A DNA stretch of 64,000 nt from contig CALURL010000006.1 in the NCBI GenBank assembly GCA_944323155.1, positions 21,159 to 85,158 on the forward strand. Direction: 5' to 3'. Numbering within the stretch: position 1 is the first letter of the stretch; the number at the start of each line of letters is the position of its first letter. This document shows, in pieces, positions 3,776 through 49,467 of the stretch. The notes beneath the pieces are model-generated. The model did no database searches. It saw only the letters and a program-made list of their open reading frames with translations, and was not told the origin of the DNA. The DNA comes from Candidatus Gastranaerophilales bacterium. GTDB taxonomy: Bacteria; Cyanobacteriota; Vampirovibrionia; Gastranaerophilales; Gastranaerophilaceae. The position numbers and the translations under genes were made by a program.

Positions 3776-3786
3776 CCCCCCCCCCC
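3776..3786 (-). repeat. G11 homopolymer (coding strand) at codon 10 of the giant pilin-like gene; in frame
   Basis: Counted 5+6 C on the plus strand. Coding strand is ATG+27 nt+G11 = ...LLS GGGG D. With G10 the frame would hit TAG (GCG ATA ATT CCT TAG). Confidence 0.9.
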
Positions 3787-8872: not shown

Positions 8873-9732
8873 CTAATACGGACTTTCATAATCATCAAAA
8901 GTATATTTTCTATTACAAAAGCTTTGATTACCCTTTACGCATTTTAAATAATCAAGATTTTCTTCCTGTAACACCCACGCAGAACAGCCACTGCCATTCC
9001 ACCAGCCATCTGCTCCAGTATCAGATGCAGGATTACACTGCTTGTAAGTAGAATGAGCTCCTGAACCGCCGCGGGGAATAATCCTGTTTCGTCCAACCTG
9101 AAATGTAAATGTGTCTACTCCCCAGCGATTTGGCCCTCTATTACCGTTTATATCGACATCAATATTAAAACAGTAATTATTACCTGAAAAAATGCCGCAC
9201 ATATTATCTTTTGCAGAACTAGCAGAGATTTGGTGGCCAAAACCGTAGACTATACCGTCTGCTGAAATTAAAGATGCACGGCTTCCGATTTCATCTACAT
9301 TATTATTAAGCAAATCTTTTCTCGCATCTTTTTGAAAACACTTGCCGCTATTGTTTTCATCAGGTGTACACACGCGCACATTTTTGATATATTTACTAAA
9401 CAAAATTGCGACATCATCCCAGGAATCATTTTCTAATGAAGGTAAAGACCAGTCTGATGGTTCGCCATAATCGTTCAGCATCATTGTATAGGCATTCGAT
9501 ATAGTTGAATATGCTTTTTTCAAACGAACAACTGTTTCTTTTTCCCTATGATTGGCAATTAAATTAGGCAATGTCAAAGCTGCGACAATGCCAATTATCC
9601 CTAAAGTAATTAAGACCTCTGCAAGGGTAAAGGCGGATTTTCTCGGTTTGCCAGACTCAATATAAGAGGTAAAATGGCCCTCTACGCGGCGCTTGCCCCC
9701 CCCCCGACAAGCTTTTTAAACAATCTTTTCAT
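8873..9732 (-). CDS. Prepilin-type protein, phase-variable leader; out of frame at G10; start overlaps murG stop
   Basis: ATG 9732 overlaps the murG TGA (ATGA). Reads MKRLFKKLV+G10 then GCA AGC GCC GCG TAG. G11 would give MKRLFKKLVGGGGKRRVEGHFTSYIESGKPRKSA|FTLAEVLITLGIIGIVAALTLPNLIANH..., joining track ORF 8873..9577 (155 nt offset, mod 3 = 2). Contains IDVDINGNRGPNRWGVDTFTF. Confidence 0.8.
9696..9705 (-). repeat. G10 homopolymer at codon 10 of pilin-like gene (off frame)
   Basis: 5+5 C counted on the plus strand. Confidence 0.9.
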
Positions 9733-23886: not shown

Positions 23887-25275
23887 TTAAGCCTTTTCTT
23901 TTACCGTCTTTGCAACAATTGCAGCGATTAACAAACAAGCAGCACCCACCAAAAATGCATATTCCCAATGATAATTTATATAGTCAGAACCCATATGGAA
24001 AGCACACTTTGAAATAAACCATGCAACAAGCGTACAAACAAAAACCTGAGGTCCTGCTATAAATATATTAAAAATACCCATTACAGAGCCTTCCGTTCCC
24101 TTTTTAATAAATTGGGAAAGCATTGCAAAAGGTAAAGCACAAATACTTGCCCAGCCAATTCCTGCTAATGCCATCATTACTGCAACAAATTTTATATCTT
24201 TGACAAATGCCATTCCAAGGTAAGCTAAAACCATGGACAGCAAAGAGATTATGTGAACCTTTTTATTGCCAAATTTTGCAGATAAAACACCAATAGGTAT
24301 AGCAACAAGAAAACAAATTAGATTAAAAATAGCAAAACAAATTGAAGAAAAATTAGTTCCGCTGATAACAGCATCATCAAACAACTGTTTTGTAGATTCA
24401 GCCGCAGTTGTCAAATCAGGAACACAATATAAAGTATGAACACAAAACTGTGTAAAGAATATCATTACACACATTGTACCTATCCAGGTAAAAAATTGCA
24501 TTACACATATTTTTGTAACTTCCGGAGAAAGAGCAAAGAAGTTTTTTAAAGCATCCCAGAAAGTATCTTCTTTAATTTCTGCAACAGCGACATCTTTAAC
24601 CATTTCTTTTTTAGTATTATATTCCTTAATAGTTAAACAAGTCCAAATCATACCAAGCGTGAAAGCAAGGGCGGCCATAATAAATTGAGCATTAACAGAC
24701 ATTTGATAATCAAATATAATCTTTAAAAAAGGAGCAGCACCAGCGGCAATAACAGAACCCAACCCTATGGCAAGACTAATATATGAGTTTGCAATAGAAT
24801 ACTGCTCTTCAGGAACAATATCTGGAATTAAAGCTCTATAAGGCCCCTGTGCAACATTGACGCAAGCATCAATTATCCAAATCATTATTGCGGCAATTAA
24901 TAATGCCGTTAAAGCAGGAAGTTGAATTCCAGTAAAATGAGATATAAAATCAGCAACATTTGCAGAATTTGGGAATATCCACAAAGCAACAGAAGCTAAT
25001 AAAGCACCTCCTAAAAGATAAGGTCTCCTTCTTCCTAACGGAGAAACAGTCTTATCGCTTAATGCTCCGACAAGCGGCTGAACAACCATTCCCGTAAAAG
25101 GTCCAGCAAGCCAGATTAAACCATAAATAAACGGAGAAGCTCCTAAACTCTCTGTTACAGGCCCTGACAAAATAATTCTCATCTGCCAGGCAAACTGTAA
25201 GCCAAAAAATCCTAAAGCGAAATTCAAAAACTGGGCTGGTGTAAACTTTTTCAAAACAAAATTATTCTCATCCAT
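23887..25275 (-). CDS. MFS transporter, GPH/sucrose-H+ symporter-like
   Basis: 12-TM-like profile with the RRRPYLLGG motif typical of the glycoside-pentoside-hexuronide / SLC45 family. Confidence 0.7.
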   Translation of the reverse strand: MDENNFVLKKFTPAQFLNFALGFFGLQFAWQMRIILSGPVTESLGASPFIYGLIWLAGPFTGMVVQPLVGALSDKTVSPLGRRRPYLLGGALLASVALWIFPNSANVADFISHFTGIQLPALTALLIAAIMIWIIDACVNVAQGPYRALIPDIVPEEQYSIANSYISLAIGLGSVIAAGAAPFLKIIFDYQMSVNAQFIMAALAFTLGMIWTCLTIKEYNTKKEMVKDVAVAEIKEDTFWDALKNFFALSPEVTKICVMQFFTWIGTMCVMIFFTQFCVHTLYCVPDLTTAAESTKQLFDDAVISGTNFSSICFAIFNLICFLVAIPIGVLSAKFGNKKVHIISLLSMVLAYLGMAFVKDIKFVAVMMALAGIGWASICALPFAMLSQFIKKGTEGSVMGIFNIFIAGPQVFVCTLVAWFISKCAFHMGSDYINYHWEYAFLVGAACLLIAAIVAKTVKEKA

Positions 25276-25370
25276 TAAATCAGTATCTCCCCGAAAATAA
25301 ACTCTTTGTCATTTTACGATACAACGAACAAAAAGCATAGTCAATAAAAACTTGACAAAGCAAAAATAAA

Positions 25371-25395
25371 AAAGAGAGTTTTAACTCTCTTTTTT
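25371..25395 (-). terminator. Rho-independent terminator after pyrG
   Basis: Minus strand: AAAGAGAGTTAAAACTCTCTTT flanked by an A run and a T run, immediately after the stop at 25396. Confidence 0.7.
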
Positions 25396-27060
<1,665 letters not shown>

Positions 27061-27484: not shown

Positions 27485-28279
27485 TTGGAGAAAATTTTGT
27501 TGGATAGTAAAACAAAAATTGCAGAAGATCTTGACGCCCAGTTAATTGCATACAAAGAATGCAAGGACGAAAAGAAAAAAAGAATGATACATTTAAGTAT
27601 TGTTGAAAATGCAATGTATCTTGTAAAAAAAATTGCAGGAAACATTGCGGCTCAATCAGGTTCGTCTATAGAAGACCTAATACAGGTTGGTTCTATCGGA
27701 CTTATTAAGGCTATTGAATTTTTTAATTCCGACAAAAATGCAAGATTCAAAACTTATGCATCATACTTTATTAGAGGAGAAATAAAACATTACCTCCGGG
27801 ATAAAGCCTCTATAATAAAAGCTCCAAGAGAACTGCAGGAACTCGTTTTCAAAATAAACTCAGCAATAAAAAAGCTGCATGAAAAAGGAATTGAAGATCC
27901 GACAGATGAACAAGTTGCACAGGAAGTTGGAATTACAACCGCAAAAATCCATGAAGTTCTAGAAATAGAACACTGCAAAAGCACACTTTCTCTGGATCAA
28001 TCTTTTACAACTGATGACGACGATTTAACGCTTATTGATAAAATCCCATCTGGAGATTATCAGGAATTTTTAAATTCATATGAAGACAAAATCATGATAG
28101 CTTCTGCAATAAAAAAATTACCTAAGGATTTAAGAGAAATTATTGAACTTAGTTATTATGAGGATTTGAACCAAAGAGAAATTTCGGAAAAAATTCATAT
28201 CTCTCAAATGCAGGTTTCAAGACGTTTGAAAAAAGCATTAAATAGAATGTACGAAATTATAAAATCAGAAGAAAATTAA
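27485..28279 (+). CDS. RNA polymerase sigma factor, group 3 (SigF/SigB-like)
   Basis: Region 2 (FKTYASYFIRGEIKHYLRD) and region 4.2 HTH (NQREISEKIHISQMQVSRRLKKAL). TTG start. Confidence 0.8.
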   Translation: MEKILLDSKTKIAEDLDAQLIAYKECKDEKKKRMIHLSIVENAMYLVKKIAGNIAAQSGSSIEDLIQVGSIGLIKAIEFFNSDKNARFKTYASYFIRGEIKHYLRDKASIIKAPRELQELVFKINSAIKKLHEKGIEDPTDEQVAQEVGITTAKIHEVLEIEHCKSTLSLDQSFTTDDDDLTLIDKIPSGDYQEFLNSYEDKIMIASAIKKLPKDLREIIELSYYEDLNQREISEKIHISQMQVSRRLKKALNRMYEIIKSEEN

Positions 28280-28315: not shown

Positions 28316-29314
28316 ATGACACTATTTATAACACTTGTAGCATTCGTTTTTATAATAGGGCTTTGTATAGGAAGTTTTTTAAATGTTGTCATACTCAGAA
28401 CCCTATCTGAAGAATCAATTGTTTTTCCAGCGTCAAAATGTCCAAAATGCCAGCATCCGTTAAAATGGTGGCATAATATACCTTTAATATCTTATATTTG
28501 CCTTAAAGGCAAATGTGCTTTTTGTAAAGAACCAATCAGCATACAATATCCTATTGTGGAACTTTTAACAGGAATCATATTCACATTAATATTTTTAAAA
28601 TTCGGCATTTCTGTTGATACAATTGTGGGCTGGATTATTGCAAGTTTACTTATTATTATTGCAGGGACTGATTTTAAAGAAAAAGTTGTTTATGATATTC
28701 ACACACTTTCACTTGTTGGTGTAGGTCTTTTATACGCTGCAATAGTTACAGCTTATGGATTATTTGTTATGCACAATGCAACTGGAGAAATCACATTTAG
28801 CAAAGATTTACTTCTAAACAATCCTTTCACAAACTCAGTTCTTGGCATAATTGCAGGTATTGTTATTATGGAAGTATTTGCGAGATTTGGCTACCTTGTT
28901 CAAAGAGGTGTTAGAATGTTTGAAGTCGGCGATACTTATATTGCTGCAGGTTTGGGAGCATTTCTTGGCTGGAGAACACTAATTATTGCTCTTATATTAT
29001 CAGTTATATTGCAAGTTATATATTTTCTGCCGCTATTTATCAAAGATTTATTTTGTAAAAAAGAATGGAAAACGCTTATTCCATTTGTACTATTTGTAAT
29101 TTATGCCATAACATTTTTCTCACTAGAACATTATGGAATTATAGATATTTCAAACTTTGCATTATACAGTGCATTAACACTATTGCTTGCAGGTCTTGGA
29201 ATTTATACATGTTATAGAATATTTAAAGGTCTAAGAGAAAATCCATCATCTGCAACATGTTTACCGTTCGGACCGGCAATGGTTGTTGCCGCGCTAATTT
29301 TGTTAATTTTATAA
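28316..29314 (+). CDS. pilD: Prepilin peptidase (A24 family, PilD-like)
   Basis: Zn-finger-like CPKCQHPL...CAFCKEPIS, QYPIVELLTG, GTDFKEKVVYD and VGDTYIAAGLGAFLGW aspartyl motifs, multi-pass membrane. Confidence 0.85.
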   Translation: MTLFITLVAFVFIIGLCIGSFLNVVILRTLSEESIVFPASKCPKCQHPLKWWHNIPLISYICLKGKCAFCKEPISIQYPIVELLTGIIFTLIFLKFGISVDTIVGWIIASLLIIIAGTDFKEKVVYDIHTLSLVGVGLLYAAIVTAYGLFVMHNATGEITFSKDLLLNNPFTNSVLGIIAGIVIMEVFARFGYLVQRGVRMFEVGDTYIAAGLGAFLGWRTLIIALILSVILQVIYFLPLFIKDLFCKKEWKTLIPFVLFVIYAITFFSLEHYGIIDISNFALYSALTLLLAGLGIYTCYRIFKGLRENPSSATCLPFGPAMVVAALILLIL

Positions 29315-29333
29315 AATAAAAGGAGGCTTAATT

Positions 29334-29390
29334 ATGTTATTCAAAAATAATTCACGCGTTTGCCCCCCCCCCGACAAGCTAATAAAATAA
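29334..29390 (+). other. Inverted copy of the pilin leader/homopolymer module; reads as an 18-codon mini-ORF on the plus strand
   Basis: AGGAGG 29321-29326, then ATG 29334 ... CGCGTTTG-C10-GACAAGCT. This is the reverse complement of AGCTTGTC-G10-CAAGCGC seen at 9690-9715. Plus-strand ORF is MLFKNNSRVCPPPDKLIK*. Flanked by direct repeats ATAAAATAAA(A)GG at 29311 and 29382. Confidence 0.6.
29363..29372 (+). repeat. C10 homopolymer (tract inverted relative to the adjacent pilin-like gene)
   Basis: 8+2 C counted on the plus strand. Confidence 0.9.
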
Positions 29391-29417
29391 AGGTTTTTGG
29401 GGATATCTATAAAAATA

Positions 29418-29446
29418 TTGACAATTTTAAGAATATACTTCATAAT
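29418..29446 (+). promoter_or_regulatory. Candidate promoter TTGACA-N17-CATAAT upstream of pilin-like gene 5
   Basis: TTGACA 29418-29423, 17-nt spacer, CATAAT 29441-29446. Confidence 0.5.
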
Positions 29447-29471
29447 AGTGATGTGTTACATCTCAAATTAA

Positions 29472-30166
29472 AAAAATAAATTATATATTGAGGAAGATAA
29501 GATTATATCCAAACTTGCTTTCACATTAGCTGAAGTTTTAATTACGCTCGGAATTATAGGGATAGTTGCAGCGTTAACTTTACCGTCAGTTATTACTAAA
29601 TATCAAAAAAAGAGGCGGCCACAAGACTTGAACATGCTTATGCAGTTGTATATCAAGCCATAAAGATGTCAGAAGCAGTTAACGGGCCTATGGAAGACTG
29701 GCAAATCGAAGGTATAAATGATTTAAGCTACGCTGAAATTACTAAAAATTTTGTTGAAAGGTATATAACACCATACCTTACAACTGTCAATAAAAAACAA
29801 TTACCTTCATCTGGTATGCCTTATGACTATTACTATAGAGAAAACGGAAAGCTTGTTAATGCCGGCGGGCATACATATTATAGTATTGCGTTGAATAATG
29901 GAACTTATTTGCATTTTAATGCAGACTACGGACAATCCAATCCAATAAGCTTAAGAATTGATATAAACGGAGAAAAGAAACCTAATATTGCAGGAAGAGA
30001 TACATTTCATCTCTACTTTTTCCCGAAATTTGAATTTGAGGGTAGCAATTTAACAAGAACACAGCTGATAAATGGGTGTAAAAATGGAGTTAATTATGGT
30101 TCTGTACACTGCGGACGAATAATTCAAATGGATGGATGGCAGATAAAAGACGATTACCCTTGGTAG
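29472..30166 (+). pseudogene. Prepilin-type gene lacking a canonical start and frameshifted in an A7 run
   Basis: Open frame from 29472 reads KNKLYIEEDKIISKLA|FTLAEVLITLGIIGIVAALTLPSVITKYQKK with no ATG/GTG/TTG (GAGGAAG RBS-like, then in-frame ATT 29502). The frame is lost at A7 (29605-29611). An A8 would continue EAATRLEHAYAVVYQAIKMSEAVNG into track ORF 29666..30166. Contains LRIDINGEKKPNIAGRDTFHLYF and the C-terminus GWQIKDDYPW. Confidence 0.75.
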
Positions 30167-30175
30167 CCCCTCCCT

Positions 30176-30799
30176 CTACAATGAAAGTATTCGCAAACTT
30201 TCTTTCAAAATATCTTCAGCAGACGCATTATCCGACAAAACAGAGACGGCTTTTGATAATGCGTTTTGTATTTCCTTGCGTTCATAACCCAGTGAAACAA
30301 GAACCATTTGAGCATCTTCAATAGCCTGATTATCCTGTTTTACCTCTGATATAGAAGTTATTTTTATCGGCTCTTTTGTTTGATAATTCATTAATTTATC
30401 TTTCAATTCCAATATAATTTTTTGAGCGAGTTTTGGTCCAACACCTTTAGCTCTGGTTAATTCTTTGTAATTACCTTCAATAACAAAGCCGATAAGTTCT
30501 GATGTTTCAAATTCATCAAGCAGAGTTAAAGCCATTTTTGCCCCGACTCCAGAAACTGAAATCAGGATATTAAATATATCTCTTGCTTCTTTATGCAAAA
30601 ATCCGCACAATGACATTTTATCTTCCCTATGCAAAAGAACAGTATAAATTTTGCCTTCTTGCCCCGGTTCAGGAGCAGAGTTAAAGTCTCTCAATGTTAC
30701 CTCAAGCAGATACCCGATTCCAAAAGTCTCTACGGTAACGTATGTTCCCTTTGAAGTATTTGATTTATTAGTAAAAATACCTTTTATATAATCGTACAT
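30176..30799 (-). CDS. ruvA: Holliday junction branch migration complex subunit RuvA
   Basis: MYDYIKGIF... N-terminus, two HhH motifs (VSGVGAKMAL, AKGVGPKLAQKI), C-terminal domain III. Confidence 0.88.
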   Translation of the reverse strand: MYDYIKGIFTNKSNTSKGTYVTVETFGIGYLLEVTLRDFNSAPEPGQEGKIYTVLLHREDKMSLCGFLHKEARDIFNILISVSGVGAKMALTLLDEFETSELIGFVIEGNYKELTRAKGVGPKLAQKIILELKDKLMNYQTKEPIKITSISEVKQDNQAIEDAQMVLVSLGYERKEIQNALSKAVSVLSDNASAEDILKESLRILSL

Positions 30800-48531: not shown

Positions 48532-49467
48532 CTAATATTTAAGGGAATTTAAAATTTTTGTATTATGAAGATACTTATTATAATATCTTTTACGGCTTTT
48601 TTGAGAACCAACTTTTGAATATATGAAAAATTTTATATTATCAAACTTCAGTTTAAACATATATTTATAGATATTATATGAATTTTGCATCATAAAATCT
48701 TCATAGAAATCGGATAATCTAGCATATTTCCACCAAATATGCCTCATACTATGCATACAATCAAAACGATTCGGGTTTGCACCGACGAAATGAACAATTA
48801 TAGGATTTTCTATTTTGTCATTAATATTAAGCCAGTATTGTTCACAATAATTGTATTCTCGACCAAGATTTATTTTTCGTTCATCAATCATAATATTTAA
48901 AGTATCTTGATCAGCACATTTTATATTTTTAACATTTTTTCTAACGTAATCGACTGTTTTTTCATAAAAATGTTCTTCACGCCATAATTTTGCATTAATT
49001 AAAATAACGCCAGCATTAAAATATAGTAAGCTTTTCAGGCCTATGCCCCCCCCCCCGGGAAGCGCCACTACTGCAGCATAATTGCTGCCAAGGTCAATAT
49101 TAAACAAATTTTTAAGAGAGCTAAGAACCATTGTATCGGAATCTAAATATAGAATCTTATCAATATCATTACACAATTCTGCAATCTTTATTCTAAACCA
49201 TGTAGCCATTGTAACCCAATTTACAAGAGGAAATCCCTTAAATTCGTCGCGTTCTACTTTTACAAAACGGATATTACAATGTCTGATATTTTTTACAGAG
49301 TTTATTTTTTCTATACTAGCGTCAGACAAGCCCGAATGGATTATAACAAACTCAATTTCATCACTACTGTCAGCATTTTTCAAAACAGAAATCATTGATA
49401 CAGATGTTATACCGGCATAATTCTCATCAGGAGCATATGCAATAGTAATCTTTTCTTTTTTCAACAT
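48532..49467 (-). CDS. Glycosyltransferase family 8 protein carrying an internal in-frame G11 tract
   Basis: 311 aa. IAYAPDENYA.., YLDSDTMVL (DxD), FNAGVILINAKLWRE are GT8 blocks. The tract encodes LPGGGGIGL near codon 137-141. Confidence 0.85.
   Translation of the reverse strand: MLKKEKITIAYAPDENYAGITSVSMISVLKNADSSDEIEFVIIHSGLSDASIEKINSVKNIRHCNIRFVKVERDEFKGFPLVNWVTMATWFRIKIAELCNDIDKILYLDSDTMVLSSLKNLFNIDLGSNYAAVVALPGGGGIGLKSLLYFNAGVILINAKLWREEHFYEKTVDYVRKNVKNIKCADQDTLNIMIDERKINLGREYNYCEQYWLNINDKIENPIIVHFVGANPNRFDCMHSMRHIWWKYARLSDFYEDFMMQNSYNIYKYMFKLKFDNIKFFIYSKVGSQKSRKRYYNKYLHNTKILNSLKY
49046..49056 (-). repeat. G11 homopolymer inside the GT8 gene (in frame)
   Basis: 5+6 C counted on the plus strand, followed by GGG. 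Coding strand is CCC-G11-CAT. Confidence 0.9.

Follow-up and report, generated by a model that had tools for sequence, protein, structure and literature searches.

Poly-G and poly-C contingency loci are a familiar feature of the AT-rich genomes of Campylobacter jejuni and Helicobacter, and in Bordetella pertussis fim2 and fim3 undergo phase variation through poly-C tracts in their promoters. In Neisseria, the opa genes contain CTCTT repeats where the leader peptide is encoded, and these toggle the reading frame (PMC3960869), and pilC carries a homopolymeric tract of 9 to 20 G residues within its reading frame (PMC5953494). We analysed a locus in a 64-kb stretch of DNA (the window) from an uncultured gut Gastranaerophilales (Melainabacteria) bacterium, together with the versions of that locus in other assemblies. 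On the basis of a decay series, of the frame logic of C10 and C11 tracts, and of a single orientation throughout, it is highly probable that the locus in the window is a decayed member of a phase-variable family of pilin-like contingency genes. Phase variation of pilins in Melainabacteria did not come up in our searches of the literature, and neither did a description of the contingency-gene family itself; the switching mechanism is already well known.

As in opa and pilC, a simple repeat at the beginning of the coding sequence, or close to it, sets the frame of a surface or pilus-associated protein, and as in opa the genes form a multigene family in which each copy would be switched independently. 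Unlike in the two Neisseria systems, the proteins to be switched are type IV pilin-like and bear a class III signal of the PilD type, the tract lies 25-29 nt past the ATG of an unusually long leader (~24-100 residues), the same core is poly-G or poly-C depending on the gene, and the host belongs to a non-photosynthetic cyanobacterial lineage that is uncultured. The runs of 9-11 G or C, confined to surface-structure genes in a genome of ~34% GC, resemble the Campylobacter and Helicobacter loci. The family differs from them in its stereotyped cassette (RBS, ATG, 8-9 codons, tract) and in the flanks AGCTTGTC-Gn-CAA, which are common to paralogues and species. As in fim2 and fim3, the poly-C lies upstream of a fimbrial-type subunit body and of a promoter-like element; here, however, the tract is inside the ORF and sets its frame, and a promoter-spacing mechanism is not supported.

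The encoded protein shares several features with type IV pilins, minor pilins and pseudopilins, the substrates of PilD or GspO: the motif A|FTLAEV, which places F at +1 and E at +5, a hydrophobic α1 helix, an adjacent prepilin peptidase gene, a long N-terminal helix packed in the model on a β-sheet, and two cysteines at the C-terminal end. In contrast to classical type IV pilins, whose leaders have ~6-30 residues, its leader is far longer and ends in Ala at −1, and its DUF6613 head has no detectable match to solved pilins.

The pilin-like gene adjoining pilD

The pilD-like prepilin peptidase gene (28316..29314, + strand) was taken from the ORF list, and PF06750 and PF01478 were found on an identical protein. 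A single pilin-like gene (29321-30166) lies immediately 3′ of it, followed by ruvA (30176..30799, − strand), which is the ancestral neighbour of pilD; only in this species was the pilin-like gene found between the two. An Rfam scan of the window returned one tRNA and nothing else. We rejected the idea that the gene is a translocated copy of a paralogue in the MFS-pyrG slot (the slot paralogue), since both coexist in five assemblies (L093, L094, L096, L098 and L100); similarity between the two is confined to the 5′ leader region.

A Shine-Dalgarno sequence AGGAGG (29321..29326, +) stands 7 nt 5′ of an ATG at 29334, in the same RBS-ATG layout as in the paralogues. After nine codons (29 nt) comes a C10 tract (29363..29372, +), the putative switch, with the ON frame at 8, 11 or 14 residues. 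At C10 the frame from the ATG (29334..29390, +) reads MLFKNNSRVCPPPDKLIK and stops at the TAA at 29388-90. The RBS-preceded ORF of 18 codons that had been noted here is thus present, but it is where the pre-pilin ORF really begins. TTG at 29360 was considered as an alternative start at C10 and discarded, because it has no Shine-Dalgarno sequence and because the frame relation needs the 29-nt distance from ATG to tract.

The long leader-coding region (29373..29519, +) comprises 49 codons in intact alleles of the same species; in the window an A7 run splits it between two frames. Its open frame is significant, a stop being absent in only 20 of 5000 shuffles, and it is evidently kept open by selection. 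In the window the pilin frame opens after a TAA at 29469, and F(+1) at 29520 is reached without an ATG, GTG or TTG, just as the original prediction stated. The ATT or ATA start suggested to solve this is not needed, because the frame of intact alleles runs open all the way back to the ATG at 29334. Nor does the locus call for an inversion switch.

The mature N-terminus FTLAEVLITLGIIGIVAALTLP... (29520..29611, +, frame 0) combines a class III signal with the α1 helix, corresponds to N_methyl, and forms a long helix in the model. Its cleavage motif KLA|FTLAEVLITLGIIGIVAALTLP has the A at −1, F at +1, E at +5 and hydrophobic stretch of ~20 residues of a class III signal, and the prepilin peptidase gene expected for a pilin adjoins it. 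For PF07963 (N_methyl), the homologue P0004 scored 29.4 bits, above the cut-off, and the same-species protein P0001 scored 17.5 vs 21.2, below it. The rest of the body (DUF6613 region, 29612..30166, +) is in frame 2, where gene callers give only a 166-aa ORF (29666-30166); P0001 scored 18.7 for DUF6613, below the Pfam cut-off of 24.3. An AF2 model (pLDDT 81.5) placed a helix at residues 56-108, followed by a β-sheet. A Foldseek search against PDB gave no match at E ≤ 0.001 and no solved pilin for the head domain; sequence matches to solved pilins were limited to the N-terminus. Two cysteines near the C-terminus are invariant. We infer that PilD cleaves the long leader and that the gene is co-transcribed with pilD. 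PilD substrates do not usually have a leader as long as ~60 residues.

The leader-coding region also contains the best promoter-like site of the region, TTGACA-N17-CATAAT (29418..29446, +; 11/12). Its presence was confirmed, and homologous leaders from other species conserve both hexamers and the 17-nt spacing, so the site may be real. Six nucleotides past the −10 hexamer, in the leader frame, is a GTG (29453..29455, +), a candidate leaderless start in intact alleles; in the window allele its frame runs for 8 codons only. It is conceivable, though rather unlikely, that intact alleles are expressed in two ways, the embedded promoter giving a leaderless mRNA that starts at GTG 29453 and encodes a 22-residue leader, and the ATG-tract ORF acting as a second, phase-variable route or as a modulator. 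The hexamers and their spacing are kept while the spacer diverges among the focal gene, the slot paralogue (L084), L014 and L023, reading TTGACA/CATAAT in L014 and TTTACA/TATAAT in L023. An in-frame start lies exactly 6 nt past the −10 in three of these genes (ATG in L014 and L023, GTG in the focal gene); the predicted leaders have 11, 20 and 22 residues, and those of L014 and L023 end in G|F. On the other hand, the site lies inside homologous coding sequence, and the leader residues (ID..HN) may account for part of its conservation. Moreover, the slot paralogue has GTA at the start position, GTG works poorly as a leaderless start, the long upstream frame is under selection of its own to stay open, and L095 is without the promoter-like element altogether. 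The A7 insertion in the window allele would kill the leaderless route as well.

Alleles of the locus and the length of the C tract

The locus was sampled in 18 versions, one from the window and one from each of 17 other assemblies, two of these versions being contig-end fragments. Tract lengths and allele states were read from assembly consensus sequences. The tract was C10 in 16 versions (the window and 15 assemblies) and C11 in two, L065 and L101. In L101 the frame is continuous from the ATG into the pilin N-terminus, and in L065 the C11 tract sits on a dead allele with A7 at both of the A runs described below. Intact alleles, with A6 in the leader and A8 in the body, were found in L068, L093, L094, L096 and, with a replaced leader, L095. 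On the contig of P0001 (L068) the 5′ module is the same, and the three runs are C10, A6 and A8; P0001 matches the repaired body at 100% identity and extends upstream as MPPPRQANK...LKLKNKLYIEEDKIISKLA|FTLAEV. With the tract set to C11, the ORF from the ATG measured 277-278 aa in L068, L093 and L096, which are standard intact alleles, compared with 18 aa at C10. L095 set to C11 gave 312 aa, and the window allele 48 aa only.

Contingency genes are recognised by a homopolymer of at least ~8 nt inside the coding region or shortly before it, here the C10 at 29363-72; by its length polymorphism among sequences that are otherwise identical, here C10/C11 at the locus and 9 to 11 in the paralogue tracts; and by a toggle between truncated and full-length products, which the intact alleles display and the window allele does not. 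The intact layout consists of the Shine-Dalgarno sequence, ATG 29334, nine codons, poly-C, ~49 leader codons, KLA|FTLAEV and the body. In this layout C11 puts the ATG in frame with a pre-pilin of 277-278 aa, and C10 leads to a stop after 18 codons; slipped-strand mispairing at the tract would toggle the gene ON and OFF. We infer that this switching is reversible and of high frequency.

Tract lengths cluster tightly, mostly at 10 with some at 11 and one at 9, and the standard intact alleles nearly all have the OFF length. Length 10 could itself be designed: slippage of RNA polymerase, or −1 slippage of the ribosome, on G10 or C10 would supply a constitutive low level of pre-pilin, and 10-to-11 changes in the DNA would just raise that level. 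We regard this as improbable. GGG and CCC codons do re-pair perfectly, nearly all tracts across loci, strains and species are one base short of ON, with a single C9 as the sole departure within the species, and a −1 slip at C10 should, by the sequence, yield the same protein as C11. However, a 10/11 polymorphism in the DNA that tracks ORF state was observed, and the pattern also follows from a mutational equilibrium near 10 together with selection for OFF.

Other versions of the locus document its decay. L097 carries one frameshift (A6/A7), the window allele, L062-65, L099 and L102 carry two (A7/A7), and L098 and L100 combine A6/A8 with a T deletion at 29519. In the window, the first A7 run (29470..29476, +; A6 in intact alleles) makes a TAA at 29477 in the leader frame. 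The second (29605..29611, +; A8 in intact alleles), where frame 0 reads A AAA AAG, moves the body into the frame of the ORF 29666-30166. A frameshift in an A7 run had been predicted and was found at 29605-11, and the run at 29470-76 is a further lesion of the same kind. The extra A in the leader and the lost A in the body together inactivate the window allele, a pseudogene whose frame is broken twice and which gives the full-length product at no tract length. The original prediction, all of whose sequence elements were found in place, had offered three readings and proposed comparing the junction in relatives. That comparison revealed progressive decay, the outcome it had named as refuting the exotic ones, and the decayed-member reading alone was supported, by intact, one-frameshift, two-frameshift and differently broken alleles of the same species.

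It is very unlikely that programmed recoding rescues the window allele through a +1 shift at AAA AAA UAA (29471-79) and a −1 shift at A AAA AAG (29606-12). The latter is a classic bacterial −1 slippery heptamer in frame 0, and a −1 slip there would give exactly the peptide of the intact alleles, KYQKK|EAATRLEH. Against this, the downstream sequence has no stimulatory structure (z = +0.75), and no Shine-Dalgarno-like sequence was seen immediately before the site. Other strains have A6 and A8, in frame, at the two sites, which are thus polymorphic and not conserved recoding signals. In homologues and intact alleles the frame continues unbroken, through A8 or other codons, the lesions of other strains lie elsewhere, and two rare events would be needed in addition to C11.

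Orientation of the core and the direct repeats

The tract is embedded in a module, CGCGTTTG-C10-GACAAGCT (29355-29380), and a pattern search of the window delimited a 25-nt core, GCGTTTG-C10-GACAAGCT (29356..29380, +). The pattern GCGCTTG-C10-GACAAGCT matched the window twice, at 9689-9713 without mismatch and at 29356-29380 with one, and had no match in shuffles. The former match is the core of locus 2 (9689..9713, +), whose gene at 9696 is on the − strand and has a sense G10 tract (OFF), with G11 (ON) in L072, L078 and L081. The module at the focal locus had been described as the reverse complement of that of locus 2, which holds relative to gene direction and fails on the chromosome, where both copies are on the + strand. 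Nor does the module point away from the pilin body, being part of the gene's own leader-coding region.

Sense poly-C was also found in the closest homologues in other Gastranaerophilales, P0002/P0004 (..SAPPP..), P0010, P0003 and P0058, and in L002, L004, L009, L013, L014, L016, L023, L105 and L115. In L069-71 an ATG, 27 nt and C10 follow one another, and the gene would be ON at C11. A metagenome pattern scan recovered the core from other species in both gene orientations; the present species was not recovered, and the scan added no further tract lengths for the locus. Sense poly-C is the normal form of this subfamily and not the product of a recent flip at the locus.

The first direct repeat, ATAAAATAAAAGG (29311..29323, +), overlaps the pilD stop codon and enters the Shine-Dalgarno sequence, and the second (29382..29393, +) lies within leader-coding sequence (..ANKIK..). 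ATAAAATAAARG occurs in the window at 29311 and 29382 only; shuffles gave an expected 0.24 matches and in 0 of 100 cases two. The repeats described in the original prediction are present, but their reading as scars of an insertion is not supported. Neither is target-site duplication around a 71-bp insert, since the second copy is conserved leader-coding sequence common to the slot paralogue, in which the sequence further upstream matches AATAAAG only. A remnant or active inversion switch, with a ~70-bp module between the repeats flipped or flippable relative to the gene, is highly improbable: the core is indeed the exact reverse complement of the locus-2 module relative to gene direction, and occurs in both gene orientations across the family, but all 18 versions have one orientation, the flanks are direct repeats and the sole inverted pairs weak and AT-rich, no recombinase is annotated among the called genes of the retrieved flanking regions, a flipped module would have no ATG at −27, and homologues with sense poly-C and a homologous upstream ORF show that the orientation is old.

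Poly-G and poly-C tracts in surface genes of the lineage

Besides the decayed gene, the window contains five more pilin-like genes with an ATG, 27 nt and a poly-G tract, ON at G11 and OFF at G10. One of the five is ON in the window (311 aa; G11 at 3776..3786, −), and states vary between samples. A GT8 gene resembling LPS galactosyltransferases carries a G11 tract at 49046-56. All seven tracts in the window have their C residues on one chromosomal strand. GC skew, calculated for an origin near dnaA and a replication-strand rule for the tracts, simply tracked gene orientation.

The unit of tract and flanks recurs in different pilin-like genes and species with sense poly-G or poly-C, and the frames of the flanks differ between ON genes (RQA in the focal gene, DKL in L105). 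We give only a small chance to the idea that the tract with its flanks (AGCTTGTC-Gn-CAA = TTG-Cn-GACAAGCT) is a DNA-level unit working in either orientation. The cassette could be swapped between co-oriented tracts by short-patch conversion, or some factor that sets slippage, or keeps the length at 10, could recognise the flanks. A hairpin formed by GCTTG/CAAGC arms around the tract was discounted, as neither fold reached significance (z = −1.0 and −1.7) and other paralogues are without the arms.

The focal locus provides a natural series of alleles, which are ON or OFF, carry a single or a double frameshift, or have a replaced leader. Gene callers miss the true start and report truncated or TTG-start ORFs, by which pilin annotation in MAG catalogues is distorted. 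If true, control by the conserved embedded promoter and leaderless start would form a second layer that does not depend on the tract. Gastranaerophilales are common uncultured gut bacteria, and to our knowledge almost nothing is known of their surface presentation. Poly-G or poly-C tracts occur in no fewer than six pilin-like genes of the window and in one LPS glycosyltransferase-like gene, and the states of these genes differ between human samples. These observations suggest that this lineage varies its surface structures as Neisseria, Haemophilus and Campylobacter do.

Structure of the pilin-like gene next to pilD

The elements listed in the original prediction around the pilin-like gene at 29321-30166 (plus strand), between pilD and ruvA, were all located. 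The CGCGTTTG-C10-GACAAGCT module occupies 29355-29380, and the 18-codon ORF follows an RBS (AGGAGG, 29321-26), starting at ATG 29334 and ending at TAA 29388-90. Copies of the direct repeat ATAAAATAAA(A)GG are confined to 29311 and 29382 (expected count, 0.24), and the promoter-like TTGACA-N17-CATAAT at 29418-46 is the region's top match (11/12). TAA 29469 marks the upstream limit of the pilin frame, in which no ATG, GTG or TTG precedes F(+1) at 29520; a frameshift in the A7 run at 29605-11 puts the body in frame with ORF 29666-30166. The 25-nt core GCGCTTG-C10-GACAAGCT matched the window only at 9689-9713 (no mismatch) and 29356-29380 (one mismatch), and never matched shuffled sequence. Statistics support the non-randomness of these features.

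We compared the locus with the database protein P0001 (268 aa), which is 100% identical to the frameshift-repaired body and reads MPPPRQANKIKVFGDI..LHLKLKNKLYIEEDKIISKLA|FTLAEV upstream of it. The contig that carries it, L068, matches the window in the end of pilD, the RBS, the ATG, C10 with flanks and both direct-repeat copies, and differs in having A6 for A7 at 29470-76 and A8 for A7 at 29605-11. This comparison indicates that the 18-codon ORF is the genuine start of the gene, and that the C tract is part of its leader-coding region. When C11 was set in the standard intact alleles (contigs L068, L093 and L096), a single ORF of 277-278 aa ran from ATG 29334, and in L095 one of 312 aa; C10 gives an 18-aa product. 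The 49-codon leader frame, in a stretch of 22% GC, was stop-free in only 20 of 5000 shuffles, an openness well beyond chance, and other long leaders in the family behaved similarly.

The gene upstream encodes the prepilin peptidase (28316-29314), whose closest relatives place the host in the Gastranaerophilales (Melainabacteria). Directly upstream of pilD, in the same orientation, is a gene for a SigF-like (group 3) sigma factor (27485-28279). The stop codon of pilD is followed after 7 nt by the focal RBS, and no clear terminator separates the two. The three genes could plausibly form one sigF-pilD-pilin transcription unit. The pilin-like N-terminus is predicted to be a class III signal followed by an alpha-1 helix, as judged from the N_methyl motif and weak N-terminal matches to ComGE, GspG and solved pilins. 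In an AF2 model (pLDDT 81.5) the leader is disordered, a helix spans 56-108, and the head is a beta-sheet. The family alignment contains two invariant cysteines, and no solved structure homologous to the DUF6613 head emerged from Foldseek.

Orientation and relatives of the tract module

The module had been described as the reverse complement of that at locus 2 (the 9696 locus). This holds relative to gene direction only; on the DNA, both matches lie on the plus strand. Sense-strand poly-C is the normal state among relatives of the gene. The closest homologues (about 60% identity; proteins P0002 and P0004, contigs L002 and L069-71) occupy a slot between the MFS transporter gene and pyrG, about 3.7 kb upstream of pilD, and in L069-71 the order is promoter, RBS, ATG, 27 nt and C10, with C11 as the ON length that puts the ATG in frame with the pilin body. 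In other species the same slot holds more divergent pilin-like genes, each with sense poly-C and a homologous mini-ORF upstream. In some strains of the species, a slot paralogue carries a 5' leader homologous to the focal one, including GCGCTTG-C9/10-GACAAGCTAATAAAATAAAG and the embedded TTGACA-17-CATAAT. Since this paralogue and the focal gene coexist in the same strains, relocation of the former does not account for the latter; the second direct-repeat copy, being part of the conserved leader (ANKIK), is likewise no insertion scar. No inverted repeats were found flanking the module, and no recombinase was annotated among the genes called in the flanking regions retrieved. In L020, the closest relative by PilD (86% identity), pilD, a terminator and ruvA follow with nothing intervening, which argues that the focal gene is a lineage-specific insert.

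In a metagenome scan, further Gastranaerophilales-like contigs also carried the core, and either orientation relative to the gene occurred: seven genes have AAGCTTGTC-G10-CAA and two have TTG-C11-GACAAGCT (L105, which is ON, and L115). The flank of the core encodes RQA in the ON form of the focal gene and DKL in L105; its conservation therefore lies in the DNA or reflects descent, and is not that of a peptide.

The MFS-pyrG slot itself (25275-25396) is vacant in the window, with a promoter remnant (..catagtcaataaaaacTTGACAaag) kept. In other strains of the species (L084/L096, L093, L094, L098 and L100) it holds a 231-aa pilin-like gene with a C9 or C10 tract, and a leftover DUF6613 C-terminus (..LIQYDRWEIKDD) downstream. 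Pilin cassettes appear to be replaced at this slot. Leaders are mosaic: L095 has two ATHVDICTNI repeats in place of the focal leader, several homologues (P0035, P0039, P0040 and P0050) have partial pilin N-termini (AFTLAEGATHV...) ahead of the real FTLAEV, and a GC-rich "GATHV" element recurs across the family.

Alleles within the species

We compared the window with 17 same-species assemblies picked by identical PilD or GatC, two of them contig-end fragments. Every version had the focal gene between pilD and ruvA, with the module in constant orientation. Sixteen versions, the window and 15 assemblies, had a C10 tract; the other two had C11, namely L101, where the ATG is in frame into the pilin N-terminus up to the contig end, and L065, a dead allele. 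Intact alleles have A6 at 29470-76 and A8 at 29605-11 (L068, L093, L094 and L096, and L095 with its replaced leader). With no other change, L097 has one frameshift (A6 and A7), and the window type (A7 and A7) is shared by L062-65, L099 and L102. L098 and L100 have A6 and A8 with a different frameshift, a 1-nt deletion in the TTT run at 29519-21.

The A7/A7 combination recurred in independent samples, and A6/A8 was found in other samples of the same sequencing projects, which indicates that the frameshifts are real alleles and not homopolymer sequencing errors. The series displays the progressive decay that the original prediction had set against its more exotic readings, and the gene has been inactivated in at least two or three separate events. 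In the window allele the switch is irrelevant, since two further frameshifts prevent any full-length product.

Proposed tract-length switching in the pilin-like family

The window (34% GC) contains seven C10/C11 runs, all with C on the plus strand (3776-86, 7123-32, 9696-05, 22413-22, 29363-72, 40087-96 and 49046-56); six of the genes bearing them are on the minus strand with sense G, and one is on the plus strand with sense C. Replication direction was not revealed by GC skew. Five minus-strand pilin-like genes share a layout of RBS, ATG, 8 codons (27 nt), poly-G, a leader of variable length and A/G|FTL(A/S)EV. In these, G11 or G8 is in frame and G10 leads to a stop after 15-16 codons; the gene at 3776-86 (G11, 311 aa) is the only one ON in the window. 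Paralogue tract states vary among the samples assembled: the 9696 locus is G11 (ON) in L072, L078 and L081 and G10 elsewhere, and the 3776 locus, G11 in the window and L073, is G10 in L072, L075 and L080.

Post-tract sequence (CAAGCGCCGCGTAGAGGG..) is common to the 7123 and 9696 loci in some strains and not in others (L074 and L079 versus the window), which suggests gene conversion around the tract between these neighbouring paralogues. The G11 tract at 49046-56 lies in frame, on the sense strand, inside a minus-strand GT8 gene (48532-49467) resembling LPS 3-alpha-galactosyltransferase, and was G11 in all three versions (the window and two other assemblies). This is probably another phase-variable surface gene, comparable to lgtC of Neisseria and Haemophilus.

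The best-supported mechanism is a slipped-strand contingency switch within the leader-coding region, similar to those of Neisseria opa, with CTCTT repeats in its leader region (PMC3960869), and pilC, with a poly-G/C tract within the reading frame (PMC5953494). Tract lengths bunch tightly at 10, one short of ON. Such clustering would fit a mutational mode combined with selection for OFF, and also leaves room for designed −1 slippage at length 10. The promoter-like site within the leader may be active: L014 and L023, where the spacer has diverged, retain both hexamers and the 17-nt spacing. Together with an in-frame start exactly 6 nt past the −10 hexamer (ATG in L014 and L023, GTG in the focal gene), this conservation suggests a second route of expression, through a leaderless mRNA that would encode a short leader peptide. 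For A AAA AAG in the window allele, recoding is unlikely: this site varies between alleles, the intact ones keep the frame there, and no stimulatory structure was found downstream.

Slipped-strand switching is already known in kind. No account of phase-variable pilins in Melainabacteria or Gastranaerophilales turned up in full-text literature searches, and published genome descriptions mention only the presence of type IV pilus genes (PMC5877343). We conclude that the focal locus belongs, as a decayed member, to a pilin-like family of which we found no description in the literature. Mis-started genes occur in L069-L071 and P0002/P0004, and in P0001, P0003 and P0058; at the OFF length, gene callers start from a TTG that is in a different frame or lies right at the tract (MPPP..., MKNVYSRSFESAPPP...). 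Because of such mis-starts, database proteins of this family often carry artefactual N-termini.
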